IMG/VR virus record: IMGVR_UViG_3300009177_000031
Span: 1-64,000 of that record
Length of the DNA stretch: 64,000 nt
Strand: one strand, 5' to 3'
DNA from: a virus
The notes beneath the pieces were generated by a model. The model saw nothing but the letters and a program-made list of their open reading frames with translations, was not told the origin of the DNA and ran no database searches. Shown here piece after piece: positions 14,292-34,275 of this stretch (positions are counted from its first letter, which is position 1; every line of letters starts with the position of its first letter). Both the position numbers and the translations under genes were made by a program.

Positions 14292-16097
14292 ATGGCGCTT
14301 GTCGATCAGCACGGGCGAGAAGTCTCCGTCATGCCGGTGGATGCACCGGTATCGGAGCAAATCCAGAAGGCAGTCACAGCTGCAACGGAGGAGCTGTTCG
14401 ACAAGATGGATCGCGTGCTGTCGATGTCAGCACCACCGCCACCGAGCGCAAACGAGCCGAAGGGCTGGTACACCGATCCGTTTGCGCTTCTCGACTCGCT
14501 CGGCATGGGCTACCGCGCGAACCCAAGCCACGTGACGTACGAGACGCTTCGTCAAATGACGGAGCGCGACACGTTGCTTGGTAGCATCATCAACACGCGC
14601 ATCGCGCAGATCAGCACGTTCTGTCGCGAGCAAGAGAACAAGTACAGCGTCGGCAACCTGGTGCGTTTGAAGGGCGCCGATCGGCACAAGCGACGTCTGA
14701 CGAACGGTGAGAAGGATCGCAAGAAGAAGATCGAAGCCTACGTCGAGAACATGGGTGGCGAGCGCAACGTCACGCGCGACAAGTTTGGCAACGCGGTGAA
14801 GAAGCTCGTGCGCGACACGCTCTCGTACGATCAGGCGAACATCGAGAATCACTTCACGCGCGGTGGTGACCTGCACCAATCGCTCGTGCTCGACGCGACG
14901 ACGATTCGCATCGCCGATCAGACGAAGACGAACCCTCGCGGCATTCCGCTGAAGCCGTCCGACGAGAAGACGCACATCATGTACGCGCAGATCCTCAACG
15001 GAGAGATCGTGCGCGAGTTCACGCCTCGCGAGCTGGCGTTCCCAATTCGCAATCCGCGCTCGAACCTCAAGGTCGGTGGCTACGGCTTTCCAGAGCCGCA
15101 GCTCCTGATCCAAACCGTCACCGCCCACATTTGGGCTGAGGAGTGGAACCGCAAAGCGTTCTCGCAGGGCTCGACGATCAAGGGTGTCCTCAACATGCGA
15201 GGCAACATCGATCGTCAGAAGTACGACAACTTCAAGCGTCAGTGGACCACGCAGGTTGGTGGCATCACAAACGCGTGGAAGACGCCCATCATCAACAGCG
15301 ACGGCATCGACTTCGTTCCGATGCAGATGTCGAACACGGAGATGGGCTACCAGATGTGGATCGAGTATCTGGTCAAGATCGCGTGCGCCATCTACCAGAT
15401 GGACCCGACCGAGATCAACTTCGACCTGCGCGGTGGCAGTGGTACCGGTCAACAGCCGACGTTCGTCTCGTCAAACGAGGCGCAACAGAAGATGTCGCGC
15501 GACCGCGGTCTGCGCCCGCTGCTTCGCTTCTTCGAGGATCTGTTCAACCAGCACATCATCGATCGCATCGATCCTGACTTCGAGCTGGCGTTTGTCGGTC
15601 TCGACGCGAAGACGGAAGCGGAAGCGGTCGAGCTACGTCAGAAGCAAGGCCAAACGCACCTGACCATCAACGAGGTGCGCGCGCTCGAAGATCTGGATCC
15701 GATTCCTGGTGGCGACGTCATCATGAATCCGACGTACACCGGCTACCTGCTACAGCAACAGCAAATGCAAATGCAGGGTGGCGCTGGTGGCGGTGGTGGT
15801 GGAATGCCTGGCATGCCTGGTGGGCAGCAACAGCAGCAACCGCCAGAGCAACCGTACGCGAATCGGTTTGGACACGCTGGTTCGCCACCGACGGACGGTG
15901 CGAAGGCCGGCGCGAAGAACCTGCAATCGATGTCGCACAACAAGCCGCAGCAAGACGACGTGCACGACGAAGACGACGACATCCGCATCCTGCGGCGTGA
16001 CGATTGGTCATCGAGCGTTCACGCATCGGTGCGTGACAACGACCTGCGTAAGAGCGAGCGGAACGCGGTGGCGGACTTCTTCGAGATCGACCTGTAA
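14292..16097 (+). CDS. portal protein
   Basis: IINTRIAQI, RDTL.YDQ, IRNPR...GYG.PE, FSQG...KGVL, WK.P, TINEVR..EDL.PI.GGD; Twort/SPO1-like portal. Confidence 0.93.
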   Translation: MALVDQHGREVSVMPVDAPVSEQIQKAVTAATEELFDKMDRVLSMSAPPPPSANEPKGWYTDPFALLDSLGMGYRANPSHVTYETLRQMTERDTLLGSIINTRIAQISTFCREQENKYSVGNLVRLKGADRHKRRLTNGEKDRKKKIEAYVENMGGERNVTRDKFGNAVKKLVRDTLSYDQANIENHFTRGGDLHQSLVLDATTIRIADQTKTNPRGIPLKPSDEKTHIMYAQILNGEIVREFTPRELAFPIRNPRSNLKVGGYGFPEPQLLIQTVTAHIWAEEWNRKAFSQGSTIKGVLNMRGNIDRQKYDNFKRQWTTQVGGITNAWKTPIINSDGIDFVPMQMSNTEMGYQMWIEYLVKIACAIYQMDPTEINFDLRGGSGTGQQPTFVSSNEAQQKMSRDRGLRPLLRFFEDLFNQHIIDRIDPDFELAFVGLDAKTEAEAVELRQKQGQTHLTINEVRALEDLDPIPGGDVIMNPTYTGYLLQQQQMQMQGGAGGGGGGMPGMPGGQQQQQPPEQPYANRFGHAGSPPTDGAKAGAKNLQSMSHNKPQQDDVHDEDDDIRILRRDDWSSSVHASVRDNDLRKSERNAVADFFEIDL

Positions 16098-16101
16098 GGC
16101 G

Positions 16102-18633
16102 ATGCAGCTCATCTTCAAAGCGACGAACGTCAAGCATCCGGGTAGCCGCGGTGGGCAATTCTGGATCGACGACAAGGGGCAAGCTCGCTACGACGAGAAG
16201 CCGACGGAGCAGAAGCGTCCGCACAAGTACCTCGCAATCGTCACGCTGTCGGACGGCACCGAGAAGCGCATCGAGCCAAACGACGACGAGCTTGACGAAT
16301 ACGGTCAGGTGATCGGTGGTCAGGCGAAGATTCGCGAGATCATCAACCGCGCACTGTTCGGTGAGTACGGCTTCAAGCCAAACGGAACCTTCTGGCAGAA
16401 GAAGGGCATCCTCATCGAGTACAAGACGCGCACGACAACGCGCGGCAAGACGGAAGTCGACGCGATCCAGCGTCACCAAGGCTACACGTCGTTCGAGTTC
16501 CGTGATTCGTCCGTGTCGCGCGCGTACGGCGCAGAGCTTCCGAAGAAGATCACGCAGCACTACGTCGATCCGAAGGACGTCACGTCGAAGCACGAACCGC
16601 TTCCGTCGAAGGAGAAGATCGAGCTTCCTGAAGGCGCGACGTCGGATCAACCGCCGATCGAAGAGATGAGCATCCACACCGTGCCGAAGCGGTTGCCGAG
16701 CACGCTGACGGCGATTGGCGAGAAGCTGAAGGACAACGAGAACCCAATCGCAATCGCCGATGCGTACCTCGATGCGACGTTCCACGCGCGCAAGCCGAGT
16801 CAGGCGAAGACGGAAGCCGGACAGACCAAGGCGCGCGCAGAGCGCGAAGGTCAGTTCAACGAAGTCATCGGTCATCGCAAGATCGAGCGGCTACCGATTT
16901 GGGCAATCGCGAAGTACGACTCGCCAGCGCAATTGCAGCAAGAGCTGTCGCGCGATGGTGGACGTCCGCTCACGACGCTCATCACGCTCGGCGTTTGGGA
17001 TGAGAACAACAAGAGCAAGCGCGTTCGTGAACAGCTCATAGCGGAGTGGTCAGGCTTCTTGCGCCGCTGGTCGCAGCGCTTCGCGAGCGTGTACGCGAGC
17101 ACCGATTCGTACCGCAAGTTCGACAAGCTCGAAGGTGGGAGCAAGGCTGCGCGCGATTGGATGCACGATCGCCAGCGTGACCTGTTCAACGAAGGTGTCG
17201 CCGTGTTGCTGGACGAGGCGAACAAGTACCAGGCGAACGACGAGCCGGCCGGACCCGACAGCCGATTCGATCTGAAGGTCACGAACGCGATCAAGAACCA
17301 CCTGGAGAAGAAGGCGAAGCAGGCCGCAGTCGAGGTGCACGGCGCGACGTACTCCGAGGATTTGGCCGAAGAGGAAGCGTTCAGCCCACCGCGCATGCTC
17401 ACGCCGCGCGAGCAATTCGAGCTGCGTCACTTCGAGCCGCAAGCGATCGAGATTCTCAATTGGGCGACGTCAACGCTCAAACCAGAGCAACGTGCGGCGT
17501 TCAAGTCGCGTTTGTGGATCGACGACTACGAGAAGCATCCTGACGCATCAGAGGAGCGCGTTTGGAACGAGCGACGTGCCGAGCGTATGCAGAAGCACGG
17601 TGAGTCGAACCTGCATTGGGGACGTCCGTGGATTCGCTCTGGCGACAGCGGCACCGTGCAGGCGATGAGCGACATGCTTGGTGACATCGAAGTGAAGCTG
17701 CGCGGTGGTAAAGGCATCGCGAAGCTTCGCACGCTGAAGCCGCAGCATCAGATGTACTACCTGGAGAAGTGGTTCAACGAAGCGCAGGAGCACGTTCTCA
17801 ATCAGCTGAAGACGAAGGGCGGCGGTCTTTCGTCTGAAGGCAGGGTAGTCGAGCGCTGGCTGCGTTTGGAAGAGAAGCTCGCGCACGTGAACACGAAGGA
17901 GATCACGGACCGCGTGCAGCACAAGACGGTGCAAATGCCGCTGAAGCCGGCTGCGCCGATCGTCGAGCACAATCGCGCTCACGAGAACCCGTCCGTCACG
18001 TTCTTCAAGCAGCCTGGAACGAACCGCGAGCTGGCCGAGCGTCTCGGCATCCTCGGCGATCTCGATCTGCCCATCGCGCTGAAGAACGTGAACCTTCCGA
18101 AGCAATACGAAGAGAAGCTGAAGCGCGTCGAGGACTACCATCGGCGTTTGCAATCGAACCTGAAGCACGTTGGCGATCTTGGTGTGCTTCGCGACGAAGC
18201 GCATGCGGCGATGGAGCGTCACCGCAACATGGGCTCGTGGTACCACTCGCCGAGCGGTTCGATGGAGTGGCATGAGGACAACGGCGTGGTTGCTCTACAC
18301 GAAGCGTTGCTGAAGCTGCACAAGACGAAGGGCGAAGACCAAGCCGCTGTCACCGCGTTTACGAACGCCGCAAACGCGCTCGGCAAAGAGCATCCGATGG
18401 TGCAGGACTACGCGCGACGTTTGGCGACGCTCGGCATGGATCCACCGACGAGCACTGATCTCGCAGCGTGGAAGGCTCGCTCACATTCGGCGTATCGCGA
18501 GCACGCGAACCGGTTGCACCTGATCGAGTTCGCCCAAGAGCAACGCAACGCGAAGAAGTCGATCCGCGATTTGCGTGATGCCTTCAAGAAGTGCATCGGT
18601 GCGTACGACGATCTCAGGAAGGCGTTCGTGTAA
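16102..18633 (+). CDS. putative head-packaged protein with sigma-70-like domain
   Basis: N-terminal LIFKA...PGSRGGQFW tag; region-2-like EQLIAEW...RDLFNEGVAVLL.A.KY...RF....AIKN; region-4-like L.PEQR...RL. Confidence 0.65.
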   Translation: MQLIFKATNVKHPGSRGGQFWIDDKGQARYDEKPTEQKRPHKYLAIVTLSDGTEKRIEPNDDELDEYGQVIGGQAKIREIINRALFGEYGFKPNGTFWQKKGILIEYKTRTTTRGKTEVDAIQRHQGYTSFEFRDSSVSRAYGAELPKKITQHYVDPKDVTSKHEPLPSKEKIELPEGATSDQPPIEEMSIHTVPKRLPSTLTAIGEKLKDNENPIAIADAYLDATFHARKPSQAKTEAGQTKARAEREGQFNEVIGHRKIERLPIWAIAKYDSPAQLQQELSRDGGRPLTTLITLGVWDENNKSKRVREQLIAEWSGFLRRWSQRFASVYASTDSYRKFDKLEGGSKAARDWMHDRQRDLFNEGVAVLLDEANKYQANDEPAGPDSRFDLKVTNAIKNHLEKKAKQAAVEVHGATYSEDLAEEEAFSPPRMLTPREQFELRHFEPQAIEILNWATSTLKPEQRAAFKSRLWIDDYEKHPDASEERVWNERRAERMQKHGESNLHWGRPWIRSGDSGTVQAMSDMLGDIEVKLRGGKGIAKLRTLKPQHQMYYLEKWFNEAQEHVLNQLKTKGGGLSSEGRVVERWLRLEEKLAHVNTKEITDRVQHKTVQMPLKPAAPIVEHNRAHENPSVTFFKQPGTNRELAERLGILGDLDLPIALKNVNLPKQYEEKLKRVEDYHRRLQSNLKHVGDLGVLRDEAHAAMERHRNMGSWYHSPSGSMEWHEDNGVVALHEALLKLHKTKGEDQAAVTAFTNAANALGKEHPMVQDYARRLATLGMDPPTSTDLAAWKARSHSAYREHANRLHLIEFAQEQRNAKKSIRDLRDAFKKCIGAYDDLRKAFV

Positions 18634-20858
18634 TGCAGGTCATCCTCAGCGGCCACACGGTGCGCGCCGATTTGGAAGCAACGCCAATCGGCGCATTCGA
18701 CGTCATTCGTGACGACGTGCGCATGATCTCCACGGTGAAGCCGGTCGAGCGCATCTTCATCGAGCGCACCGAGACCGGCTATCGCGGCGTGCTGTACTCG
18801 AACGAGAAGCCGTTCCTGTTCGCGCTGAACGGCAACGGTTTCACCGCGAAGCCGATTGCGCAGGATGCGACGGTGTTCGCGTACTGCGACCGTTTGCAGG
18901 ACGAGGAGCGCGACCTGACGATGCGCCTTGATCAAGAGCGCGCAGACGCGGACATGGTGGATGTGAATCGTGTGATGTTCGAGCGCGACTCGAACCTGAC
19001 CGATGATGCAGCTGTGGCTCGCGAAGACGCGTCGCCTGCGACGCTGAAGGTGTGGGGACCGTCAGTCGACATCGCCGATCCAATCGAGCGCGTTCCTGGT
19101 GCGTATCGCAAGATGCGCCAGGGTGGATCGTCACTCGAAGGCAAGCGCAACAACGGCGTTTGCGGTGGCGGCATCGTGATGAAGGATGGGAAGGTGCTTC
19201 TCGTCAAGCCGCGTGGTGGATGGGGTGGCTACGATTGGACGTTCCCGAAGGGCTACCCGGCCGCAATCGACAACAACCATTTGGAGCAAACGGCGGTGCG
19301 CGAGGTGTGCGAGGAGACCGGCTACCGCGTCTTCGCCAATCGCTTCATCGGTCGCTTCTCGCACAACGATGGTGGTGTTTGCGACTACTTCTATTGCGAT
19401 GTCGACAACTCGAAGGAAGCCGGCACGCCGGATCCGCACGAGACGTCGGCGATCAAGTGGTGTTCGCTGGTCGAAGCGTTGGAGCTTCTCAACGATGACG
19501 TCGACGTGAAGATCCTGGCGCAAGCGAACAACCTGCTACCGCAATTGATCATCAAGTCGGAGGGCCACACCGGAACGATGGTGGCGCTGCATCTTCCGAC
19601 GGACATCGCAAAGAAGATCGCACTGAAGGGCGGTGAGGACCCTGCAAAGCTGCACATCACGCTCGCGTACCTCGGCAAAGGACTCAGCGAGCAACAGAAG
19701 AAAACCGCCGCTTCTGTGGTGCGCAGGTTTGCAGAGTCGATCGTCGATGGCTTGAAGGTGACGCTCGGCGGTGTCGGTCGCTTCAGTGCGAGCGGCACGA
19801 CGGAGGGGCGTGACGTTATCTACCTGTCGGTCGATTCGCCATCGCTCACGCGCGTTCGTCCAGAGCTGGCGAACATGCTGCGCGAGGCAGGCTTCGACTT
19901 CGACGTGCAGCACGGCTTCATTCCGCACGTGACGCTCGCGTACGTCGACAAGGACGAGAAGACGCCGATCAATCGCGTGGAGCCGATTGAGATCAAGTTC
20001 GACACGATCTCACTCACGATCGCGAACAAGCAGATGACGTTTCCGCTGAAGCTGTCGAAGCAGAACCAAGAGTTCTACGACGTGGGCCGGCGCAACTACG
20101 AAGCGCTGATGAAGTGGCGCGTCGATAAGCTGGAGAAGATGTACGGCGTCAGGTTGCCGATCAAGCCGCAGGAGTCGGCGACGTTCGTGCGTTTGGACAA
20201 GAGCCTCGATTACGAGCCAGTGATGGTGAAGGCGTTGCCGCGCATGAACAGTGACCAACGCGACGCGAAGAACAAGAAAGTCGGCGTGAAGCCGCCTGGC
20301 GCAGCGAAGAAGCAAGCCGGTGCGACCGGCAAGACGCGCTACACGTATCCGGCCGAGCAAGCAAACGCGAAGCCTGGACAGCCGCAACAGCCTGGTGGGC
20401 AACCGCAGCAACCTGGTGCGCCTGGACAGCCGCAGCAAGGTCAGGATCAGGTGCTTCCGCATCCTGACACGCCGCCGCCGCAACCCGAGCAAGCTCCGAT
20501 TGCAGCCGAGCATCCTGACAAACCGCCGCAGAACGATCCGCGTGGTCCCAATCCGCAAGAGCCGCAGCAACCGAAGCACACGATCAACATCGGCGAGCTG
20601 TGCGCAGCGCTCGGTGTTCAGCGCTCGGTGCTTCAGCAAATCGTTGCGCGCATGCAAAAGAACTTCGGCGCTGACGCGCGGAAGAAGTTCGTGTCGTTCA
20701 TGAGTGTGCAGCTGAAGCAGTTTGCGGACGAGCACGGTTTGGAAGGCGACTACTTCGGTTTGCTGTTCGATGTGCTCACCGGAAAGGTGCAGGAAGGTCA
20801 GCCTGCATCGCAACAGCAACCGCAACCGCAGGGAGGAAGCCGTGGCGCTAAAGCGTGA
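18633..20858 (+). CDS. multidomain protein: Nudix hydrolase + 2H phosphoesterase + Q/P-rich tail
   Basis: Nudix box WTFPKG...TAVREVCEETG; two HxT motifs (LHITLAY, PHVTLAY). Confidence 0.85.
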   Translation: MQVILSGHTVRADLEATPIGAFDVIRDDVRMISTVKPVERIFIERTETGYRGVLYSNEKPFLFALNGNGFTAKPIAQDATVFAYCDRLQDEERDLTMRLDQERADADMVDVNRVMFERDSNLTDDAAVAREDASPATLKVWGPSVDIADPIERVPGAYRKMRQGGSSLEGKRNNGVCGGGIVMKDGKVLLVKPRGGWGGYDWTFPKGYPAAIDNNHLEQTAVREVCEETGYRVFANRFIGRFSHNDGGVCDYFYCDVDNSKEAGTPDPHETSAIKWCSLVEALELLNDDVDVKILAQANNLLPQLIIKSEGHTGTMVALHLPTDIAKKIALKGGEDPAKLHITLAYLGKGLSEQQKKTAASVVRRFAESIVDGLKVTLGGVGRFSASGTTEGRDVIYLSVDSPSLTRVRPELANMLREAGFDFDVQHGFIPHVTLAYVDKDEKTPINRVEPIEIKFDTISLTIANKQMTFPLKLSKQNQEFYDVGRRNYEALMKWRVDKLEKMYGVRLPIKPQESATFVRLDKSLDYEPVMVKALPRMNSDQRDAKNKKVGVKPPGAAKKQAGATGKTRYTYPAEQANAKPGQPQQPGGQPQQPGAPGQPQQGQDQVLPHPDTPPPQPEQAPIAAEHPDKPPQNDPRGPNPQEPQQPKHTINIGELCAALGVQRSVLQQIVARMQKNFGADARKKFVSFMSVQLKQFADEHGLEGDYFGLLFDVLTGKVQEGQPASQQQPQPQGGSRGAKA

Positions 20859-23208
20859 TCTGATGAAAGCAACGGTGCAGAACCCTGGCTCGCGCGGTGG
20901 CAAGTTCTGGCGTGACGAGAAGGGCGTCATTCACTACGGCGAGAAGCCGGTGGAGGACAAGATCCAGGAGCGCGCGAAGTCGATCCTCGATCAAGTGAAG
21001 CGTCGCGCGCGTGGCAAGGGTGGCGAGATTGCGCTGTCGAAGCAGGATCTGGAGAAGCTGCTTGCGTCAGGCAAGTACGCGCTCGTGAGTGCAGGGCCGA
21101 ATCCAAACCACGCTGACGACAAGAATCTCAGCCAAGACGAAATCAAACGTCGCCACAAACAGCTCGGCGAAGACTTGGTCGATGCTGGCTACATGTTCAC
21201 GAACGTGACCGGTCACTACGGTGGAACCGAAGATTCGTACCTCGTGATGATTCACGATGCGGATCGTAAAGACGTCGACGAGCTTGGGAAGAAGTACCAC
21301 CAAGATTCGATCATCTACGGTGAAGCTGGGCACCAGGAGATGCGCTTCACTTTTGGTGAGCACGTTGGTACGATGCACACCGGTACGGGTTACGAAATCA
21401 AGAACGACGCTGACGACTTCTTCACGATCGTTCGCCATCCAGACGGAAGCTCGACGAAGTTTGCTCTCAACTTCGATTGGGACAAACGAGAGATTGCAAA
21501 AGCGCTCAAGCTGTTGTTCAAAGCAGAGAAGCCGGAAGAGAAGAAGCCGGCGAAAGACGAGAAGGGCGCTGGCTTCAACGAATCGATGGGTGAGCAACCG
21601 GTGGATGCACCGGTCGGATTCGGACCACGCATCGTCAAGTTGCCGATGCACCCAAACGCGGATGTGAATCCGAAGGTGCACGAGGCGAAGATGGAAGAGA
21701 AGAAGCAGCGCGAGAAGTCGCAACCGAAGCTCGCGCTGAAGAAGGGTGCTGGCTGGAACGATAAGGACGAGCGGATGTACCAGCACATCAAGGACAGCGG
21801 TGCGAGCGAGAAGATCGCTGCGGCTACCGTCAACAAGCAACGACGCAAGGAGGGCCGCGTGAAGAAGTCGAAGCCGAGTGTCACGCTGATCAAGGGCGTG
21901 CGTCCAGGTGCGAAGGGCGCAGGCTCACGCGGTGGCAAGATCGCGTACCACACTAAGAGCGGCAAGCCTGTGTATCAGTCGCAGGTGAAGAAGCAAGCGC
22001 CGACGTTTTCACAGATGGGCCACAACTGGACGAAGCACGCCGAGAACGCGGAGAAGAAGATCGCCGACTACAAGGCGGATCCGAACTCGAACAACCCGTC
22101 GCACTATCGTTCGTACGTCGGCGAAGCCGCAGGTAACCATGCGACCGCTGCGAAGCAGCATCTCGTCGCCGCGTTCTACCAGCATCACGCCGGTGACTCG
22201 GACAAGGCGAAGGAACACATGGCAGCGGCGGAACATCACGCCGAGCACGCGAAGAAGCACATGGAGACGTCGGCGAAGCACAAAGGTGACTACGGCGTCA
22301 AACATCATCACCAAACCGCGGTGCGTGCGATGAAGTGGTTCGATGCGAACCACGCATCGACACACGAAGCGGTGCACTACGGTCGCCATCCTGATCCTCA
22401 CATCGAATCGATTGCGCAAGACGCGCAGGATTCCGGCCGTCACGAGGAAGCCAAACGCATTCGTCACTCACAAGACGACGTCAAGAAGGCGCTCACGCCT
22501 AGCAACAACAACGGAGGAAACATGTCGAAGAACGAAGTCGCGGATCTGTTCAAGAGCGAGCTGGGCGAGAGCAACGCCAAGCCCATCACCACGTGCGTGC
22601 ACTGCAAGCACGACCTGACGCGAGACGATCTCAAGAAGGGTCTCGGCACGCACTTCGTCGCAGACGACAACGACAACCCGCACAGCGGTGGCGATGGTTC
22701 TGTCGAGGTCGTTCGCGGCGTTCCTGGCGCGAAGGAGAACGACGAAATCGCGCCGCTCTTGAAGGGTCTCAAGGGCAAGGAGGCCGGCGACAACGAGGAG
22801 TATCCGATCAGCAAGAGCGAGATGGCGACGATGGGCATGAGCGTCGACGGTCTCGATGATGGCTGGTACACGATCACCAAGAGCGAGATGCAGAAGCAGG
22901 CACCGGAGCATCTCGCGTACCTCGTCGATCGCAAGGAGCGCGTCGCGAAGGCGATCAAGCCGACGGTCAACGCGCTGAAGAAGGGCGAGGAGCCGATTCG
23001 CAAGGGTGACACGTCGCGCTCGACGACGGACGGACCGCACGGCTACTCGCCGCGCGCTGGCGGTGTTGTCGGTCCGAGCGGTGAATCGCTCGTGCAGTGG
23101 AGCGAAGGCTCGGACAAGCAGGTCGCCGAGTACATCGAGAAGTCCGGTCACGGCTACGGTCCTGGCAACGACGAGCCGATCCGCACGCAAGGTCGGGGGA
23201 CCTTCTAA
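20842..23208 (+). CDS. putative head-packaged polyprotein: SAM-lyase-like domain, ChaB-like mini-domain, His-rich module
   Basis: GTG after GGAGG; two GSRGG tags; YALVSA...RH...TGHYGGTEDS.LV...QDSII...FFTI; many xxK-A/S/G sites. Confidence 0.75.
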   Translation: MALKRDLMKATVQNPGSRGGKFWRDEKGVIHYGEKPVEDKIQERAKSILDQVKRRARGKGGEIALSKQDLEKLLASGKYALVSAGPNPNHADDKNLSQDEIKRRHKQLGEDLVDAGYMFTNVTGHYGGTEDSYLVMIHDADRKDVDELGKKYHQDSIIYGEAGHQEMRFTFGEHVGTMHTGTGYEIKNDADDFFTIVRHPDGSSTKFALNFDWDKREIAKALKLLFKAEKPEEKKPAKDEKGAGFNESMGEQPVDAPVGFGPRIVKLPMHPNADVNPKVHEAKMEEKKQREKSQPKLALKKGAGWNDKDERMYQHIKDSGASEKIAAATVNKQRRKEGRVKKSKPSVTLIKGVRPGAKGAGSRGGKIAYHTKSGKPVYQSQVKKQAPTFSQMGHNWTKHAENAEKKIADYKADPNSNNPSHYRSYVGEAAGNHATAAKQHLVAAFYQHHAGDSDKAKEHMAAAEHHAEHAKKHMETSAKHKGDYGVKHHHQTAVRAMKWFDANHASTHEAVHYGRHPDPHIESIAQDAQDSGRHEEAKRIRHSQDDVKKALTPSNNNGGNMSKNEVADLFKSELGESNAKPITTCVHCKHDLTRDDLKKGLGTHFVADDNDNPHSGGDGSVEVVRGVPGAKENDEIAPLLKGLKGKEAGDNEEYPISKSEMATMGMSVDGLDDGWYTITKSEMQKQAPEHLAYLVDRKERVAKAIKPTVNALKKGEEPIRKGDTSRSTTDGPHGYSPRAGGVVGPSGESLVQWSEGSDKQVAEYIEKSGHGYGPGNDEPIRTQGRGTF

Positions 23209-23420
23209 TGTCGGTTGCTGCACTCTCTGAACGAGCTGTGCAGCAACCGATGGCTGCACGAAGCAAGCAGAGCATCGATTACAAACGCGGCGTTTGTCCG
23301 TGTTGTTCGCAACCGATGTTGGTGATGGCAAGCCAGCCTGAAGCACCGTGCGTCGATTGCTACGTAGAAGAGAAGCCGAAGCTTGCAATCGGAACGCAGC
23401 CCATTCCGGTTGACCGCTAG
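23208..23420 (+). CDS. small Zn-ribbon protein
   Basis: TAATG coupling; CPCC...CVDC. Confidence 0.6.
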   Translation: MSVAALSERAVQQPMAARSKQSIDYKRGVCPCCSQPMLVMASQPEAPCVDCYVEEKPKLAIGTQPIPVDR

Positions 23421-23434
23421 CTCGTGAGGAGCAG

Positions 23435-26400
23435 ATGAACGACGACATCGATTTTGACGCGTTGTATGAAGGTCTCAACGTCGACACCGACTTGATGATC
23501 AAAGCGACGCTTCGCGTGCCTGCGCGTCCGATGAAGAACGCAGTCGCGCAATCGCTGTCGTTGGACCTGAAGGCTTTGTACAAGGCGCGCGCAGAAGCGT
23601 TGATGGCGGACATCACCGACGTGATGAACGAAGAGGAGCCGATTGCAAAGGCCGATCTGATCTTCGCGAATGGGCGCGTTTTGTTCAAAGCTTTGACAGG
23701 GCAACCGAAGCCACCACCTTCGGCACCGAAGCTTGAAACGCATCAGCAACCAGGTCACGCAAACGCACCGAAGACGCCGAGCGCTGGCGCAGGTGCGAAG
23801 TCGACGATGCCTGGTGGACAGCGTCGTCTCACAGCGTCCGGCTACATCCACGTCGAGACTCCTGGCTCGCGTGGTGGAAAGTTCTGGCGCGACGAGAAAG
23901 GCAACGTGCGCTACGGCGACAAGCCGAGCGGCACCTTCCAAGTGGAAGCGCCACCGCATGATGTCGTGGAGCACTACAGGAAGTATTACGCGCCGCAGCC
24001 GTTTGCAGCGCACAACCAGATGGACATGCACGAAGCTCTCATGCAGAGCGAAGTGCTCACGGAAGCCGATCACGGCTTCATGGACTTCTGGCACGAGAAC
24101 TACGATGAGGTTCTGAGCCTCATCAGTGGTGGCAAGCTCACGCGCAAGGACGTCGAGAAGGCCGGGGGTTTGCAGAACTGTTCGTTCCAGATCAACGGAC
24201 GTCCGTGCAGCGTGGGTGAGGCGATCGAGGAGTTCTTCAAGGCGAACGTCGGTGCGTTTGTCGGTGACGAAACGTACGGCGACATTGAGACGCCGGAAGA
24301 CATCCTCGAAGCGGTGCGCGGCTTGATGGACCGCTACCGCAAAGCGCTGCACGAAGATCCGAAGGTGCAAGCGCTCGCGCAAGCCGCAGCGGAGAAGCGC
24401 GAAGCCGAGCGCAACGCGTTCTACCTGACGTGCGAGCACACCGCGGAGGAGTTCTCGCCGCTCGCCGGCGATCTTGTCACGAAGGAGGACTTCGAGGATC
24501 TGACGTTCAAAGCGACCGCTGCAATGGCGCAGATGGGTCTCATCGAGCGCGGTGGCAAAGGCAGCGTTGCTCAGCGCCGCATGCGCGGTGCAATCGTTCC
24601 GAAGTCGAGCATGCTGTTGCAGGACAAGCGCAACATGGGTTCGCTTTGGAAGGACGATCAGCTCGAACGTCTCAGCGCGCCGCAGCTGATGGCGGTGCAC
24701 ATTGCAGTCGATGCGCAGGAGTCGTTCTCGAAGGACAACACCTACGAGTACGAGCCTGGTGCGCCAAACGCGAACCGCGACCGCGTGTTCGATCTCATTT
24801 GCAGCAAGCTCGGCGTCGACCCGGACGATCAGGTCGCGAAGAACACGCTGAAGCGCAAGCTGGAGAAGACGACGGAAGCGACGCTGCGCGCGATGACGAA
24901 CTACAACACCGGACAGGATCCGATGTTCGCGCTCGCGATGACGAAGCGCATCTGTGACATCTACAAGAACGCCGATTGGCTAGAAGACCACAAGAAGAAG
25001 GTCGCCGAGGAGCAATCGCGCATTCAGGAGATCCTCGCTGCGCAAGAGGACACGTCGTTCGAGCCTCCACCGTCGATGGTAAACGGCGTTTGGAACGGCA
25101 AGACGCTGAAGGATGCGAACAAGCCAGAGAAGGGCGTTTGGGCTCCGTTCGAGTACCAGAAGAAGTACATCAACTGGATGCTCAAGGCGAAGCGCGGTGT
25201 GATTGCAGCCGATGCCGGCATGGGCAAGACGCCGATCGTGATCGCGTTCCGTGAGCTGCTTGCATCGCAGGGCAAAGACGTTCCTGCCATTTGCTTCCTA
25301 CCACCGTCGTTGATGGAGCAGTGGCCTGCGGCGATCCAGAAGTTCGCGCCAGAGAACGCCGACAAGATCCTCAACCTCAGTGGTCTCTCGTTGGAGGAGC
25401 GCAAGGTCGCTTTGCAAAGCGACATGGCGAAGAAGGCTCGCTACATCTTCATCAGCACCGGCACGCTCACCGGTGACGTGCCGGATCCGAACTCGACGGA
25501 AGACGAGAACGATGGCACCGGTGGTTCTGACCACGAGATGGTCGAGATCCTGAAGAACCTCGAAGGCGCGGTGTTCATCGACGAAGCGCACCAAGGCGGT
25601 TACAAGAAAGCCGGCAACACGCGCCACGAGATTGCAAAGGCGGTGATGGAGGGTCGCGAGTACGCGTTCGGCATGACGGCTACGCCGATGCCAAACGATC
25701 CGATGGACGTCTATCACCTCGCGAACCTGTTTGCGCCTGGCAGCGTTGGTGACGCCGAGCTGTGGGCTGGTCGCACCGCTGGTGTGGCGTGGAACGAAGA
25801 GGAAGGTCGTTATGAGGTGTCGAACCCGGAGCACCTTGCAGAGCTGAACCAGCGCCTCAAGCCGTTCGTGTTCTACAAGAGCGTCAACGATCCAGACGTC
25901 GTGAAGGACATGGGCAAGGGTCTTCCGCAGAAGACCGGTGTGCACGAAGACTCAGCGATGCACGAGGGTGAGGGCGATCTGAATCTGTCAGGTCACTCGA
26001 ACGCGCAGAACGGTTTGTCGCAGCACGACTACTTCAAAGAGGGTGGTGTCATTGACACCATGATCGAGCTGCGCATCGCGCGTTTGGTGCGCGAGCGAGC
26101 GGAGAAGATTGCAAACGGCGAAGTGAATCCTTCGACCGGTGAGCCGTACAAGGCGTACCACCCCAAGTTCCTTCAGCTGATGGCTGGCGGCATGAAGATC
26201 ATGCTGCAACGGCAAGCGTCGATCTCGCCAGCGCTCATCGATCACACGTATCGCAAGTCCGATGGTGGCGTTGCGCACTCGCCGAAGATCAAGGCGCTGT
26301 GCGATGACATCGTCGCGCACTTCTCAAACGGTGGTCAGGGTGGTGACGACGCGAAGCCGCTCGTCGTGTTCTCATCGTTCCCTGGCAAAGCGTTTCCGCT

Positions 26401-27937
26401 CGTGCGCAAAGCGCTCGCCGAACGCGGTGTGGATCCGTCGCTCATCGAGACGATTGCAGGCGACGTCGCTCCGACGGAGCGCGGCTACATGCAGGACAAG
26501 CTGAACAAGGGCCACGCGAAGGTGCTCCTTGTCGGCACGATGTCAGGTGGCGCCGGTCTGAACCTTCAGGAAGCGGCGAACAAGACGCTGTTCCTCGATG
26601 AGCCGTGGAACCCGGCTGCAAAGCGTCAGGCGATTGGTCGCGTTTGGCGCACCGGACAGAACAACGTCGTGCACGAGAAGACGTACCGTTCGGTTGGTAC
26701 GTACGACTCGGTGGTGGAGCAGAAGATCGCAGGCAAGCAAGCGATGGTCGCTGCGCTTCTCGGAAAGGACATGCCGACGGAGGCATCGTTCAAGCCGGAC
26801 ACGTCGATCAAGGAGCTGCTTGGTCGCGTGAAGGGCACCGACTACACCGAGGATCAGATCAAAGCGATCATGGAGAACTCGAAGAACTACGATTTGGCTT
26901 CGAGTGAGCACAAGCAAGCCGAACAGCTTTTGCAATCGATGCACGATGAGGATTGGAAGGAGAAGGCCGGTGGTCAGGGCTTCGGTGGTGGCGTTTCCGC
27001 AACGCTGACCGACAAGGACTTCGAGCCGAACAAGGAAGCGCAGAAGACGCTCAAGAACAAGGGCGCGCACAAACTCACCGAAGCGTTCGATGAGAAGGAG
27101 TTCCGCGGCAAGTGGGAGATGGATCGCGATAAGCGCCGCTCGAAGCAGAACTACGAGATGGCGAACCTGATGGCTGACGTGTACAGCCAGCAAGGGAACA
27201 AAGAGAAAGCTGACGAGTACAAGCGTCGCGCTGACGAGCTTGCCGAGAAGTACCCTGAACTCGGTGGTGCAAAGGACGGTGGTGCGAAGAAGAAGGGCAA
27301 GGACGAGAAGCCGAAGGCCGAGAAGAAGGGCGACGAGAAGAAGCCTGCGAAGGGTGGCGACAAGAAGCAATCGAAGGAAGGTGGCGAGAGCGAGCAAACG
27401 AAACCGCCACCGCGCGCGACTGCAACGGTTGCTGACGCCGAGCACGAGCTGAAGCAAAAGGCGAAGGCGCAGGACGCGCACACCAAGACGCAAACGGAGA
27501 AGGTGAAGCAGCGCAAGCCGCAAGAGACGACGAACAAGCTCGGTGGCAATCCTGACGAGCAAGAGGCGCCGGTCAAGCCGGCGACCTTGAAGCAGCCGGT
27601 GGTGAAGCGCAACGAAGCGCTCGGTGTCGACTTCCACTCGAAGGACAATCCGTTCCCGGAGAACGGACGCAAGGTGAAGGGCACCGACGTCTCGAACGCG
27701 GAAGCGAACTACGTACTCGATGTGCTGCACAAAGAGAAGAAGCTGAAGTCGTGGGACGAGTTCATCACGACGCACATCAAGCCGGTTTGGGACGAAGAGG
27801 ACGGTCGCAATCCGTTCTCGATGAAGGCTGCGCACGAGTACGTCGGCAAGATCGTCGACGCGATCTCGAATCAAGGCTTGATGACGCTCAACGAGCCGAT
27901 GAAGGCTGCGAAGAAGCAGACCAAGAAGGAGAAGTAG
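23435..27937 (+). CDS. 1500-aa SNF2-family helicase/translocase with GSRGG tag (DarB-like virion protein)
   Basis: YQ, ADAGMGKT, FIDEAH, MTATP, SPK, GLNLQEA, WNPA...QAIGRVWRTGQ. Confidence 0.9.
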   Translation: MNDDIDFDALYEGLNVDTDLMIKATLRVPARPMKNAVAQSLSLDLKALYKARAEALMADITDVMNEEEPIAKADLIFANGRVLFKALTGQPKPPPSAPKLETHQQPGHANAPKTPSAGAGAKSTMPGGQRRLTASGYIHVETPGSRGGKFWRDEKGNVRYGDKPSGTFQVEAPPHDVVEHYRKYYAPQPFAAHNQMDMHEALMQSEVLTEADHGFMDFWHENYDEVLSLISGGKLTRKDVEKAGGLQNCSFQINGRPCSVGEAIEEFFKANVGAFVGDETYGDIETPEDILEAVRGLMDRYRKALHEDPKVQALAQAAAEKREAERNAFYLTCEHTAEEFSPLAGDLVTKEDFEDLTFKATAAMAQMGLIERGGKGSVAQRRMRGAIVPKSSMLLQDKRNMGSLWKDDQLERLSAPQLMAVHIAVDAQESFSKDNTYEYEPGAPNANRDRVFDLICSKLGVDPDDQVAKNTLKRKLEKTTEATLRAMTNYNTGQDPMFALAMTKRICDIYKNADWLEDHKKKVAEEQSRIQEILAAQEDTSFEPPPSMVNGVWNGKTLKDANKPEKGVWAPFEYQKKYINWMLKAKRGVIAADAGMGKTPIVIAFRELLASQGKDVPAICFLPPSLMEQWPAAIQKFAPENADKILNLSGLSLEERKVALQSDMAKKARYIFISTGTLTGDVPDPNSTEDENDGTGGSDHEMVEILKNLEGAVFIDEAHQGGYKKAGNTRHEIAKAVMEGREYAFGMTATPMPNDPMDVYHLANLFAPGSVGDAELWAGRTAGVAWNEEEGRYEVSNPEHLAELNQRLKPFVFYKSVNDPDVVKDMGKGLPQKTGVHEDSAMHEGEGDLNLSGHSNAQNGLSQHDYFKEGGVIDTMIELRIARLVRERAEKIANGEVNPSTGEPYKAYHPKFLQLMAGGMKIMLQRQASISPALIDHTYRKSDGGVAHSPKIKALCDDIVAHFSNGGQGGDDAKPLVVFSSFPGKAFPLVRKALAERGVDPSLIETIAGDVAPTERGYMQDKLNKGHAKVLLVGTMSGGAGLNLQEAANKTLFLDEPWNPAAKRQAIGRVWRTGQNNVVHEKTYRSVGTYDSVVEQKIAGKQAMVAALLGKDMPTEASFKPDTSIKELLGRVKGTDYTEDQIKAIMENSKNYDLASSEHKQAEQLLQSMHDEDWKEKAGGQGFGGGVSATLTDKDFEPNKEAQKTLKNKGAHKLTEAFDEKEFRGKWEMDRDKRRSKQNYEMANLMADVYSQQGNKEKADEYKRRADELAEKYPELGGAKDGGAKKKGKDEKPKAEKKGDEKKPAKGGDKKQSKEGGESEQTKPPPRATATVADAEHELKQKAKAQDAHTKTQTEKVKQRKPQETTNKLGGNPDEQEAPVKPATLKQPVVKRNEALGVDFHSKDNPFPENGRKVKGTDVSNAEANYVLDVLHKEKKLKSWDEFITTHIKPVWDEEDGRNPFSMKAAHEYVGKIVDAISNQGLMTLNEPMKAAKKQTKKEK

Positions 27938-27940
27938 GCG

Positions 27941-28405
27941 ATGCCAAATCGCGAGAAGTCGAACCACGTCGTGTTCCGCACCGTCAATCGCGGTGACGGA
28001 AAGAAGGGCATCGAGGCGCACACGCCTGAGAAGGTGCTTCCGATCCACGACAAGAAGGAACTCGAAGCGCAGCTGAAGCACTACGCGAAGTTTCTTCTAT
28101 CGCTGACGACAGGAAGTAACGTCGCTGCGCGTCGGAAGTATGTCGAGCTGATTCGTCCGGCGCTGCGCTACTACTGCAAGAAGTTCAACGTGCAGGCACC
28201 GAAGTGGCTCGCAAACGACGACTACTACACCAAGACGATGGACACCGCGACGAAGCAGCAGATGTTCGGCATGCGCCCGCTTCGCATCGGGGAGTTTCAG
28301 AAGCTGAAGCCGGTCGAAGGTGTCGAGAGCGTTTCGTATCCAGGCAAGGAGCCGGATGCGGAGGAGCAAGGAGCAAAGGCAAATGGGCAAGCCCCTCAGC
28401 GATAA
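27941..28405 (+). CDS. hypothetical head-region protein
   Basis: Packed between the SNF2 and MuF-like genes. Confidence 0.7.
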   Translation: MPNREKSNHVVFRTVNRGDGKKGIEAHTPEKVLPIHDKKELEAQLKHYAKFLLSLTTGSNVAARRKYVELIRPALRYYCKKFNVQAPKWLANDDYYTKTMDTATKQQMFGMRPLRIGEFQKLKPVEGVESVSYPGKEPDAEEQGAKANGQAPQR

Positions 28406-29336
28406 GCAACGAGAGAAGATCAGCAAGCTGATTGCTGACCATCACCTCGCGTTTGCCGTCGAGGTGCTTGGGCCTGACGCGATTCCGCGCGCTGAGCTTC
28501 AGCGTTTGCAGCGTGAAGGCATCCTGAAGCAGCACGAAGTCGAGCACGCGCAGGTTGCGATTCCAGCTGCGCACATGCTTGGCAAGCAAGCAGCGTCAAA
28601 CGCGCAGCTCGCGCGCATGCCGCCAGAGCAGTTCTGGCAGTTCATCGAGCACGCACCGCCGCAGTTCAGCAAGCACGATCTCGACGCGATGAACGCGGCG
28701 AAAGCTGTGGTTGGTCGTTTGATCGTCAACCTCGGTGTCGGTTTGCTCAACGAGTTCGAGAGTGCCAGCCATGAAGAAGCAGCAAAGCTTCGTCAGGAAG
28801 CGTTGGGGGTTGTACAACACGAGGTTGCGCTCGGCATCGCACGACGTTCTGCGAAGGAGAAAATCCAGCGTCGCTTGCGAGACAAGCTCGGCGAGTCGGA
28901 ACGCAATTGGGCGCTTGTGGTACAAACCGAACTCCACAACGCGCAGGAGTACGGCAAGGCGCTCGGACTCGGCGCTGACGGGCGAGACCCGATCGTCTAC
29001 AAGCGGCCACGTCCTGACGCTTGTCGTTTCTGCAAGCTCCTGTACCTCGTCGATGGTGTACGTCCTCGTCTCTTCCGTCTCTCAGTGCTCGTGAAGAACG
29101 GCACGAACTACGGAAAGCGTGCGCGACGTCCTTCGTTCCGTGGTGCAGGCGCAACGGAATGGAAGGCGACCGTCGGCTGCGTGCATCCTGGTTGTCAGTG
29201 CGAGATGCACCAGATGCCGGAAGGCATGACGTTCGACAAGCAGGGGAAGCTCGTTGCGTCTGTGCGCAAGAGCATCGAGCCTGACGTTCTCACCGCCGAT
29301 CTTCGGAAGCTCATCGGTCACCGGTGCGTCGCATGA
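28383..29336 (+). CDS. head morphogenesis protein (MuF/SPP1 gp7-like)
   Basis: QTELHNA...G, DACRFC and VHPGCQC motifs; lies between portal and protease. Confidence 0.8.
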   Translation: MGKPLSDKQREKISKLIADHHLAFAVEVLGPDAIPRAELQRLQREGILKQHEVEHAQVAIPAAHMLGKQAASNAQLARMPPEQFWQFIEHAPPQFSKHDLDAMNAAKAVVGRLIVNLGVGLLNEFESASHEEAAKLRQEALGVVQHEVALGIARRSAKEKIQRRLRDKLGESERNWALVVQTELHNAQEYGKALGLGADGRDPIVYKRPRPDACRFCKLLYLVDGVRPRLFRLSVLVKNGTNYGKRARRPSFRGAGATEWKATVGCVHPGCQCEMHQMPEGMTFDKQGKLVASVRKSIEPDVLTADLRKLIGHRCVA

Positions 29337-30202: not shown

Positions 30203-30226
30203 AGGTACTCCTAGGAGCCGGGTTCA

Positions 30227-30973
30227 ATGCGTGACAACGACCTTCTAGACGGCAAAGACGACTTCTTGATTTGGACGCCGAGCTGCGTCGAGATCATCAT
30301 GAAGGCTGGTGTCGACATCGAGCGCACGCGTCCAATCGGTGGAACGTGTTCGACCGAGCGTCTCGATCGCCAGGACGAGAAGGTGTTCGCGAAGGGACTC
30401 GACTTCAACGAGTTCGTGAACCACGGCTACTTCAACGACAACCACAAGCAGAACACGGCTGACATCCTCGGCTATCCGAACATGGCCGAGCTACGCAAGG
30501 GTCGTTGGTGGACCGAAGGCAACTTGCTTCTCGATTGGGAGCCTGCAAATCGTGTTTGGGCGCTCGCGAAAGCGCTCTCAAAGAGCACTGCGAAACGCAG
30601 GCTCGGCTTCTCGATCGAAGGCAAGGTAACGGAGCGCGGTTACGACAACCGCATCACGAAGGCGATCATTCGCCACGTCGCAATCACCAATTCGCCGGTG
30701 AACACCGATTGCACGTGGGACATTCTCGCGAAGGCGTTTGGCTCGATGGAGGAGCTGGAAGGTGCTTCGTTGCGTCGCGCGCTGAGCGCGGGTGCTTCGT
30801 CGCCGGGTTCCAGTGGAGGCGCAGCGCTCGCAGGTGGGCGTGTGGAGCGCAAGCCGATCGAGCTGACGTTCGACGAAGCGGTGAAGGTTCTTAAAGCGCA
30901 TCGTCCGCAGTACGCGTGGGGAACGTGCGAGCGGCTCGCTCGTGTGATTTTCAAACAAGAACGGAGGAACTGA
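30227..30973 (+). CDS. prohead (capsid maturation) protease
   Basis: G.CST..LDRQDE....GLDF, YFNDNH, LGFSIEG (catalytic Ser), VAIT..PVN. Confidence 0.9.
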   Translation: MRDNDLLDGKDDFLIWTPSCVEIIMKAGVDIERTRPIGGTCSTERLDRQDEKVFAKGLDFNEFVNHGYFNDNHKQNTADILGYPNMAELRKGRWWTEGNLLLDWEPANRVWALAKALSKSTAKRRLGFSIEGKVTERGYDNRITKAIIRHVAITNSPVNTDCTWDILAKAFGSMEELEGASLRRALSAGASSPGSSGGAALAGGRVERKPIELTFDEAVKVLKAHRPQYAWGTCERLARVIFKQERRN

Positions 30974-30974
30974 A

Positions 30975-31328: not shown

Positions 31329-31381
31329 CGAAGGCATCTAAACGCCGTTGAGGCGTTCGACATCTTGCAAAGGAGAAACAC

Positions 31382-31777: not shown

Positions 31778-31813
31778 GCGAAGCGGTTGCAAAACCACCA
31801 AGGAGAAACGCAA

Positions 31814-32874: not shown

Positions 32875-34275
32875 ATGGAAGGCAATCACGTTGGTCTGTC
32901 TGACTACGAGGGACTGACCGGGTTCGGTCTGCTCCCGACCGGAGACACCGAGGAGATCCAAAAGGCTCTCTCGGCCGGCTACCAATCGCCGCGTCACGAC
33001 GGCGGTTCCGCACTGCGCGTGGAGTCGCTCGAAGCGACGCTGCGCATCCTCACGTTCTCGCAAGGACACGTGAAGCTCTGGAAGGACATTCCGAAGCTTC
33101 CGGCGTACTCGACGAGCGAGGAGTACACCGTGCAAACGGCGTACGGCGGTGAGAACGGACCGTTCACTCGTGAAGGCGAGCTTCCGCAAGTCCAGGATGC
33201 GACGTACGAGCGTCGTGTCGAGCTGGTGAAGTTCCTCGGCACGCAGCGCGAAGTGACGCATCCGGCGACGCTCGTGCGCAATGCGTACGGCAACATCATC
33301 GCTCGCGAGACGCAGAACGGCGCGATCTGGCTGATGGAGCGTCTGGAGCGCAACCTGTTCCGCGGTCAAGCGTCGGTCATCCCGGAGTGCTTCGACGGCA
33401 TCGACGAGCAGATCCTCCGCGATCCGTTCGCGAGCGCGAACAACGTGCTCGATCTTCGCGGCGGTCCGATCACGGAAGACGTGATGGAAGAGGCGACGAA
33501 CATCATCGTGGAGAACTACGGTCTCTCCTCGGCGCTGTACCTCGCACCGCGCGCGCATTCGGACATGTCGAAGCAGTTCTACTCGCGTCAGCGCGGTGGC
33601 TTCGGCGAGCGCGAGGGTCGCATCGGCTACTCGGCGAAGATGATGGAGACGAACGCGGGCGACATCGCGCTTCGTGGCGACATCTTCCTGCGCAGCGGCA
33701 AGAACAACGGCGTCAAGACGGCACCGGCCGGCCAGACGTCGGTGCGCGCGCCGAACGCTCCGACGACGGTCACGGGCGCGCACGGCGCGAACGCTGGCTC
33801 GCTGTTCGGTGCGGCGGATGCCGGCACGTACCAGTATTGCGTCACCGCGCTGAACCGCTTCGGCGAGTCGGCGCTGACGCAGGTTGCTGGTGGCGTTGCG
33901 CCGGTGTCCGGTGACGCGGTCACGCTCACGATCACCGATGGTGGTGGTGGTGACACGGCCACGGGTTACCGCGTCTACCGCTCGAAGAACGGTGGTGCGG
34001 TGGGCACGGAGCAATTCGTGCTCGACATCCCGCGTCCGACCGGCGCGGCGACGACGGCGTTCGTCGACGTCAACCAGTTCCTGCCAGGCACGTCGCGCGC
34101 GTACCTGTTGCAGATGAACCTGCAATCGCTGTCGTTCCGACAGCTCGCTCCGATGATGAAGATCCCGCTCGCGACGCTCGCCGCGTCGATCCGCTGGATG
34201 CAGCTCATCTACGGAACGCCGATCGTGTACGCACCGCGCAAGAACCTGATCCTCATCAACGTCGCCGACGACTGA
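32875..34275 (+). CDS. major capsid protein (A511/Twort/SPO1 type)
   Basis: KALSAGY...GGSALRVESLE...LTF...WKDI.K.PA.ST...FTREG...KF, parallel to Herelleviridae Cps; FDGI motif; strong RBS. Confidence 0.95.
   Translation: MEGNHVGLSDYEGLTGFGLLPTGDTEEIQKALSAGYQSPRHDGGSALRVESLEATLRILTFSQGHVKLWKDIPKLPAYSTSEEYTVQTAYGGENGPFTREGELPQVQDATYERRVELVKFLGTQREVTHPATLVRNAYGNIIARETQNGAIWLMERLERNLFRGQASVIPECFDGIDEQILRDPFASANNVLDLRGGPITEDVMEEATNIIVENYGLSSALYLAPRAHSDMSKQFYSRQRGGFGEREGRIGYSAKMMETNAGDIALRGDIFLRSGKNNGVKTAPAGQTSVRAPNAPTTVTGAHGANAGSLFGAADAGTYQYCVTALNRFGESALTQVAGGVAPVSGDAVTLTITDGGGGDTATGYRVYRSKNGGAVGTEQFVLDIPRPTGAATTAFVDVNQFLPGTSRAYLLQMNLQSLSFRQLAPMMKIPLATLAASIRWMQLIYGTPIVYAPRKNLILINVADD

Follow-up and report, generated by a model that had tools for sequence, protein, structure and literature searches.

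A predicted T3-type S-adenosylmethionine lyase domain in a putative capsid cargo protein of a contractile-tailed phage

Proteins that counter restriction can be loaded into the phage head and ejected together with the DNA, as is the case for Dar of phage P1 and the internal proteins of phage T4. The characterised S-adenosylmethionine (SAM) lyases (T3 gp0.3, Svi3-3 and Orf1) are small and must first be produced by the new host through transcription and translation, and this need for expression leaves an interval in which type I restriction and bacteriophage exclusion (BREX) can act. Here we describe gpC, a multi-module head-region protein of 788 amino acids (aa) with an internal SAM lyase domain, encoded at 20842..23208 (+ strand) of a stretch of viral DNA of 64,000 nucleotides (the window), which comprises the first 64 kb of the 88,309-bp IMG/VR virus record IMGVR_UViG_3300009177_000031 (estimated 75% complete). 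An earlier note on the window, made from its letters alone, had proposed a T3-like SAM lyase domain embedded in a head polyprotein and delivered by the virion. We consider it fairly probable that gpC is a capsid-packaged cargo protein that carries a SAM lyase and is delivered with the DNA as a pre-made anti-defence enzyme.

T3 gp0.3 (PDB 8BB1, 7OCK; PF23780) is a stand-alone protein of 152 aa encoded by the first early gene. A cryo-EM study describes it as a monomer that forms a barrel of nine strands with two helices on the outside, and Svi3-3 as trimeric (preprint 10.1101/2023.02.27.530186). The only residues strictly conserved among proven SAMases are G56, E69 and Q104 in Svi3-3 numbering (Guo et al., PMC7877911); Y58 of Svi3-3 packs on the sulfonium of SAM (PMC7877911), and in the T3 double mutant E68Q/Q94A 5'-methylthioadenosine (MTA) was undetectable (Andriianov et al.). 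Polyvalent proteins have been argued to be packaged and injected (Iyer et al. 2017, PMC5512222), and a SAM hydrolase (ORF6) was identified by mass spectrometry in CsCl-purified virions of cyanophage S-CREM2, with entry together with the DNA being proposed (PMC10665884).

The SAM lyase domain of gpC

The gpC gene is a single open reading frame (ORF) that starts with GTG at 20842 behind the sequence GGGAGG, overlaps the end of the upstream gene (gpB) by 17 bases and ends at 23208; its product is identical to a database protein of 788 aa (P0002), and the orthologues P0003-P0006 have the same architecture. The peptide quoted in the earlier note (KYALVSAG to NFDW) matched the translation of 21073..21480 (+) exactly, as a stop-free stretch of 136 aa within this ORF, corresponding to gpC residues 78-213 (domain numbering plus 77 gives gpC numbering).

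On this domain, the Pfam family S-AdoMet_lyase (PF23780) scored 35.4 bits (E 1.2e-8) at a gathering cut-off of 28; both the protein read from 20860 and the full 788-aa P0002 scored 31.2 bits. When the whole 88,309-bp record was scanned in six frames, a single site for this family was returned (34.8 bits), and none of 14 control genomes contained a match. The Pfam score of DUF3293 fell just below its cut-off. PHROG 2226 matched with an E-value of 6.9e-6 and is labelled 'SAM-dependent methyltransferase', which is also the label of T3 gene 0.3 in NC_003298 (L002:901-1359); this shared odd label suggests that PHROG 2226 represents the T3 gp0.3 (SAMase) family. On both entries the label looks like a propagated mis-annotation, which could hide phage SAM lyases.

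An AlphaFold2 model of the domain, calculated from a 31-sequence alignment, had a predicted local distance difference test score (pLDDT) of 95 and a predicted template modelling score of 0.87, and consisted of nine strands and two helices, in agreement with the barrel and the two outer helices of T3 SAMase. The Foldseek comparison with T3 SAMase and Svi3-3 that had been suggested as a check returned T3 SAMase as top PDB match (8bb1_E, E 8.5e-5; 7ock), followed by Svi3-3 (6zm9), the structural alignment with the T3 enzyme having a sequence identity of ~21%. A second model, covering gpC residues 11-227, reached a pLDDT of 88.6, with blocks of 93-98 over model residues 41-200. Both the family consensus and this model place the start of the conserved module ~28 residues upstream of the span given in the earlier note, so that its core stands and its limits do not; as the upstream stretch lies within the confident part of the second model, we assign the full SAM lyase module to gpC residues ~50-215 (20989..21486, + strand). 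The N-terminal extension of ~28 residues follows the pattern R-x3-G-x-G-x-E ... L, with one Gly invariant and another nearly so, and includes G58 and G60.

The residues known to position SAM are found in three motifs on the + strand: G124-H125-Y126 (21211..21219), equivalent to G56-V57-Y58 of Svi3-3; E130-D131-S132 (21229..21237), equivalent to E68-K69-T70 of T3 and E69-x-S71 of Svi3-3; and Q154-D155-S156 (21301..21309), equivalent to Q94-D95-C96 of T3 and Q104-E105-S106 of Svi3-3. Among 143 aligned family domains, which share ~40-55% identity with that of the window, G124, E130 and Q154 (G47, E53 and Q77 of the domain) are kept in every sequence, Y126 (Y49) in 141, S156 (S79) in 134, S132 (S55) in 131 and D155 (D78) in 120. 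A hidden Markov model (HMM) of these 143 domains aligned the invariant Glu with T3 E68, the following Ser with T70 and Q-D-S with Q94-D95-C96, in a low-scoring alignment. The earlier note had named the Tyr, Glu and Gln-Asp positions as T3-like.

The resemblance to a SAM lyase is far beyond chance, which was rejected as an explanation on the Pfam score, the fold and the conservation. The observation made in the earlier note is confirmed, and gpC residues ~50-215 probably form a SAM lyase of the T3 type, predicted to be a monomeric beta-barrel.

Relatives, fusions and loci

An exhaustive phmmer search across 1.84 billion cluster representatives yielded 543 clusters (50% identity) at E <=0.001, 293 of them at <=1e-10. 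The 154 relative proteins examined had a median length of 656 aa, with 107 of at least 400 aa and five of less than 200 aa; these lengths are lower bounds, the proteins being derived from metagenomic fragments. Among the 150 matches listed, the position of the domain within the protein varied widely. A Pfam scan was performed on 53 of the 107 proteins of at least 400 aa, taken in the order of their ids, which is roughly best matches first. It recovered PF23780 in 49 proteins, together with InPase (11), RelA_SpoT (8), Zeta_toxin (7), Topoisom_I, NUDIX and DUF5661 (2 each), and single cases of Phage_portal, Phage_Mu_F, Peptidase_S78, ART-PolyVal, ddrB-ParB and GNAT.

Gene context was examined in four loci from IMG/VR and 23 from metagenomes. 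One locus (L004) is fully syntenic with the window, from the 538-aa ORF (p538) that precedes the portal gene, through portal, gpA, gpB, gpC and gpD, on to the protease. In L006 (947-3508), a single stop-free and N-free ORF of 853 aa combines Phage_portal (82.3 bits), S-AdoMet_lyase (44.5 bits) and DUF5661 (47.1 bits). SAM lyase proteins are encoded directly upstream of portal in L005 and L007, and downstream of portal in L014 (6863-12445, 1860 aa) and L020 (6338-13900, 2520 aa), where they combine a eukaryote-type topoisomerase IB core, ParB N-terminal and helix-turn-helix domains, the SAM lyase and LPD1. The remaining loci were too short or had no window-like head gene detectable by phmmer.

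Among matches by fold, the top ones in BFVD included an 'ART-PolyVal-like' protein of 1477 aa, a 'structural protein' of 1231 aa of a Flavobacterium phage and 'RelA/SpoT' entries, as well as small stand-alone 'S-adenosyl-L-methionine hydrolase' proteins of podophages. With tblastn, gpC and the module alone found only Myxococcus phage Mx1 among phages, at 31.5% identity, which makes it the one cultured phage with a relative detected by BLAST; the match is a hypothetical protein of 559 aa, whose gene immediately precedes that of the tail sheath (L003 11128-12807). A 'NUDIX hydrolase' of 1479 aa and a 'kinase' are encoded a few genes upstream of this relative in Mx1. In representative genomes, no prophage copy was seen with two sequence patterns (6 and 147 pattern matches, 0 relatives).

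Judged from these sequences, the SAM lyase domain is a mobile module that changes its fusion partners, which include portal, MuF, protease and effector domains of many kinds. Of these, portal, MuF and prohead protease are residents of the procapsid, and the repeated fusion to them is the strongest available evidence for the module as capsid cargo; polyvalent proteins were argued to be packaged by the same reasoning (Iyer et al. 2017, PMC5512222). Capsid packaging and delivery of gpC are predictions that this comparison supports well.

The head region: neighbouring genes, tags and processing motifs

In the window, the long genes are all on the + strand and the G+C content is ~60%. Its source is a contractile-tailed phage (myovirus), with a tail sheath gene at 38444-40234 (+) and the head genes portal (14292..16097, +; PF04860, 76.6 bits; phrog_12, E 9e-53), prohead (head maturation) protease (30227..30973, +; phrog_1028, E 1.4e-44) and major capsid protein (MCP; 32875..34275, +; phrog_752, E 1.7e-87). 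The MCP is distantly related to those of SPO1-like Herelleviridae, with 35-39% identity. No match was obtained when positions 18000-28000 were compared by megablast with 50,697 phage records. Also encoded in the window are a thymidylate kinase (53.1 bits) and a ParB-like protein; with a Dam-like candidate, they occupy the spans 2071-2799, 6135-6872 and 10932-11765.

Portal and prohead protease are separated by ~14 kb of cargo-like genes, gpC among them (16102-30202), whereas the portal and procapsid protease genes of Bacillus phage SP-10 (L031) are adjacent. SPO1-like phages lack these ~14 kb, and the cargo genes appear to have been inserted into a head module that is conserved and of the SPO1 type. 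gpA (16102-18633, +) lies between portal and gpB. In gpB (18633-20858, +), Pfam recognises both a NUDIX domain (50.1 bits) and a 2H/LigT phosphoesterase domain (43 bits), with a sub-threshold match to Acb1 (17.1 bits versus 27); the protein is a candidate for a packaged degrader of nucleotide signals. gpD (23435-27937, +) is an SNF2-type helicase of 1500 aa with a further match to a DarB-like antirestriction PHROG (E 8e-9); no methylase domain was seen in its family scans. Three smaller ORFs lie between gpD and the protease. At the thresholds applied, Pfam and PHROGs gave no family for gpA, for the 538-aa ORF or for the ORFs in 27941-30202.

The sequence G-S-R-G-G, followed by a short hairpin-like stretch, is present in five copies (13576, 16141, 20887, 21922 and 23864) in four head-region proteins; the copy at 23864 lies in gpD, and one copy precedes portal in the 538-aa ORF. 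The first tag of gpC extends from PGSRGGKFW to YGEKP (20884..20949, +; residues 15-36) and was modelled as a beta hairpin, with a pLDDT of 88 for the block that contains the first strand (model residues 11-20) and 70 for the next block. The second starts with GAGSRGGKIAYHTKSGKPVY (21916..21975, +; residues 359-378), and its residues G359, G361-G365, T371, K372, G374, V377 and Y378 are invariant in five of five orthologues. The motif G.[RK]GG was found in 41 of the 154 homologous proteins, and the variant G-P-R-G-G-K-W is often located behind the junction that ends the SAM lyase module in relatives. The hairpin is a candidate capsid-targeting tag. A further conserved element of gpC is its C-terminal region (22504..23205, +; residues ~555-788), with many invariant columns in five orthologues; no Pfam or PHROG family matched it, and an ESM Atlas search with these 234 residues found no feature match, with template modelling scores all below 0.4.

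The motifs that the earlier note described as flanking the domain are all in place: LMKA at residues 7-10 (20860..20871, +), IAKA at 218-221 (21493-21504) and LFKA at 225-228 (21514-21525). LMKA is a putative N-terminal maturation site, in which K9 is invariant in five of five orthologues and is followed by A or S; IAKA and LFKA form a junction behind the domain (21493..21525, +) with putative processing sites of the type hydrophobic-x-K-[A/G/S]. Of 103 relatives, 66 have such a motif in the 30 residues that follow the domain, compared with a background of 18% in 2,193 windows taken from these proteins; the 103 proteins are kin, and a binomial p-value therefore overstates their independence. 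Among the junctions of relatives, a recurrent form is P-C-K-K-S-M ... x-K-[A/G], followed by a G-P-R-G-G-K-W tag. K-[A/G/S] is also found 2-12 residues before the second tag and again near the C-terminal region, each in five of five orthologues. In the MCP, residues 28-31 (IQKA, 32959-32970) align with LNKA of the 'major capsid protein precursor' of SP-10 and are a candidate for a conserved maturation site after Lys. A stricter form of the motif has three occurrences each in the protease, gpB and gpD, where shuffling predicts 0.12, 0.37 and 0.78, respectively, and one in gpC (0.34 expected); it was not found in portal, MCP or the scaffold-like ORF. A search of the literature for where SPO1-type prohead proteases cleave, PMC3601020 and PMC6409932 included, yielded nothing usable and no paper that reports the specificity of the family; cleavage at hydrophobic-x-K-[A/G/S] is accordingly putative.

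Delivery, alternatives and comparison with known systems

As packaged cargo, gpC would be a late product, synthesised along with the head proteins and incorporated into the procapsid by means of a targeting element, which may be the N-terminal GSRGG hairpin, the conserved C-terminal region or both. The prohead protease would probably trim it at the hydrophobic-x-K-[A/G/S] junctions, and the product would be ejected with the DNA into the new host. There the pre-made enzyme would cleave SAM to MTA and homoserine lactone, such that the cofactor of type I restriction-modification and BREX, the presumed targets, would be gone before phage genes are expressed. For both fusion and passage, a monomeric barrel of ~19 kDa would be better suited than a trimer. 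The reading given in the earlier note is partly supported. Our analysis establishes the domain identity, the fold, the conservation of the residues that bind the substrate, the gene position and, in relatives, fusion of the module to portal, MuF and prohead protease, while catalysis on SAM, packaging, cleavage, ejection and the defence systems affected are inferred.

A wider scenario can be put forward tentatively. The capsid may be loaded with several separately tagged anti-defence enzymes that are released by the protease (NUDIX plus 2H, SAM lyase, SNF2/DarB-like and others), with GSRGG as a general targeting signal; the lyase would be latent in the precursor during late infection, so that the methylase encoded by the phage is spared, and would gain activity only once maturation and ejection have taken place, in a widespread, transcription-independent first strike. 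The earlier note had likewise argued for temporal separation, on the basis of a SAM-dependent methyltransferase gene at 2071. A candidate Dam-like adenine methylase is indeed encoded there (2071-2799); it scores 25.4 bits, below the Pfam cut-off of 28.1, and the argument is weak for this reason, although a lyase kept latent in its precursor is an appealing idea.

Several results weigh against gpC as a packaged SAM lyase. Searches of all PDB chains, by phmmer with the domain and with a 31-sequence profile, gave no match at E <=10. The alignments to T3 gp0.3 were weak, both for hhalign with the domain alignment (E 0.063) and for the HMM of the 143 domains (6 bits), and hhalign placed Q154 on T3 Q94 but shifted the Glu by one residue; because these direct alignments are weak, the equivalence of residues rests on motif pattern and fold. 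gpC itself has one recognised catalytic domain (Pfam, PHROGs) besides its two tags, and its portal, MuF and protease fusions in relatives amount to one each among the 53 proteins, plus L006. A further doubt concerns the dose. The cellular SAM pool comprises roughly 10^5 molecules per cell. T3 SAMase is made at ~10,000 molecules per cell (Andriianov et al.), and the turnover of Svi3-3 is ~9.5 per second (PMC7877911). A dozen to a few tens of packaged copies would need many minutes to drain the pool; global depletion would require tens to hundreds of copies, a faster enzyme or local action.

The same doubt favours a true SAM lyase that stays unpackaged and acts late in the producing cell, for instance blocking host or competitor methylation or redirecting methionine metabolism, with its place in the head operon reflecting co-expression: fast global depletion by few molecules is doubtful, and no MuF family was detected in the five neighbouring ORFs in 27941-32833 (Pfam E <=0.01, PHROGs E <=0.001), a result that also counts against packaging. 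We nevertheless regard an unpackaged enzyme as unlikely, given that the module is covalently fused to portal in L006 and, among the 53 proteins, once each to portal, MuF and S78 protease, all of which are procapsid-resident, and that it travels with ART-PolyVal, LPD1 and InPase, hallmark domains of polyvalent proteins; a lyase active late would moreover be in competition with the Dam-like candidate of the phage itself, for which the evidence is weak. A domain of the same fold and chemistry could alternatively act on another substrate, be it SAM-AMP in an anti-type III CRISPR role or another sulfonium compound, and still be delivered by the virion. The loop between Tyr and Glu comprises 3 residues in gpC and 10 in T3 and Svi3-3, and its shortness means that substrate specificity could differ; the conserved N-terminal extension, with its invariant and nearly invariant Gly, points the same way. 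In the trimeric branch of the wider family, a phage member cleaves SAM-AMP and not SAM (PMC12255297); the loop in which these enzymes differ is likewise unusual in gpC. SAM and SAM-AMP lyases share only the structurally conserved Glu and Gln, which are the residues kept here. Such a change of substrate likewise seems improbable to us. Least likely is a catalytically inert domain that serves as a binding or structural module, such as a MetK binder or a PII-like ligand sensor in a head protein. This would accord with the partial anti-BREX activity that T3 E68Q/Q94A retains via MetK binding (Andriianov et al.) and with the placement of the fold in the PII-like ligand-binding superfamily; every known SAM-positioning residue is, however, invariant or nearly so in 143 sequences of otherwise ~40-55% identity. 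Of the residues through which T3 SAMase contacts MetK (T4, N9, Q103, T104, H105), no Q-T-H is seen opposite T3 K101-T106 in the weak HMM alignment, and the N-terminal tail of T3 has no aligned counterpart there. In so weak an alignment, this lowers the probability that the domain binds MetK as T3 SAMase does, and not that of its family membership; it also speaks against an inert MetK binder.

If gpC is indeed a capsid-borne SAM lyase, it would close the interval before expression in which restriction and BREX can act, and destruction of a cofactor would join the short list of activities that are known to be injected with phage DNA. Being compact and monomeric, the domain should be easily tested at the bench. 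As an abundant module, it could help to trace proteins carried in the capsids of uncultured phages, together with the signals that target and process them; a first strike of this kind would, if real, be widespread in such phages (543 sequence clusters).

Compared with T3 gp0.3, the domain of gpC is internal to a 788-aa protein of the late head region, has a Tyr-Glu loop that is 7 residues shorter and a conserved N-terminal extension of ~28 residues in addition, and lacks a recognisable T3 tail and Q103-T104-H105. The small, stand-alone early protein that is typical of characterised phage SAM lyases is thus not what is found here. With Svi3-3 (PDB 6ZM9, 6ZNB) and the SAM-AMP lyases of type III CRISPR/AcrIIIB4, the domain would share the chemistry of the superfamily, the common set of G-x-Y, E-x-S and Q-[DE]-S positioning SAM for intramolecular lactone formation (PMC7877911, PMC12255297). 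Its parallel to Dar of P1 and the T4 internal proteins is one of outline, and the neighbouring gpD matches a DarB-like PHROG; Dar and T4 IPI have restriction enzymes or DNA as their targets, whereas gpC would remove the cofactor SAM, and there is no sequence relation. ORF6 of S-CREM2 provides an experimental precedent for a virion-associated SAM-degrading enzyme; it is encoded by a separate gene and listed as non-structural, and is not a module of a multi-domain protein of the head operon (PMC10665884). A 315-aa protein of S-H34, from the same cyanophage cluster as S-CREM2, matched the fold of the module in BFVD (E 3.8e-7).

There is also a likeness to the polyvalent proteins, which are large products of late operons beside virion genes and combine unrelated enzymatic modules (PMC5512222). 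No LPD family of Pfam matched the gpC domain, and the main text of PMC5512222 contains no occurrence of SAMase, AdoMet or DUF3293; its supplementary tables may list the domain under another name. In the searchable literature, no SAM lyase is described as a packaged, polyvalent or portal-fused module, the virion proteome of S-CREM2 excepted, and a search for DUF3293 returned no papers. For polyvalent proteins, processing by zincin-like metallopeptidases was proposed (PMC5512222); none was seen in gpC, for which the prohead protease is the candidate. The partners of the module in its relatives (InPase, RelA/SpoT, ART-PolyVal, LPD1, ddrB-ParB, MuF and portal) are domains catalogued in the same work (PMC5512222). 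Like polyvalent proteins, gpC lies among late virion genes and has relatives fused to MuF and portal; at least two disparate domains clearly occur together in relatives (with InPase, RelA_SpoT or Zeta_toxin, or as topoisomerase IB, ParB, SAM lyase and LPD1), whereas gpC has one recognised catalytic domain, two tags and unassigned regions. T3-type SAM lyases and packaged polyvalent proteins are each known, and Pfam already tags such proteins; apart from the virion proteome of S-CREM2, no account of their combination was found in the searchable literature.

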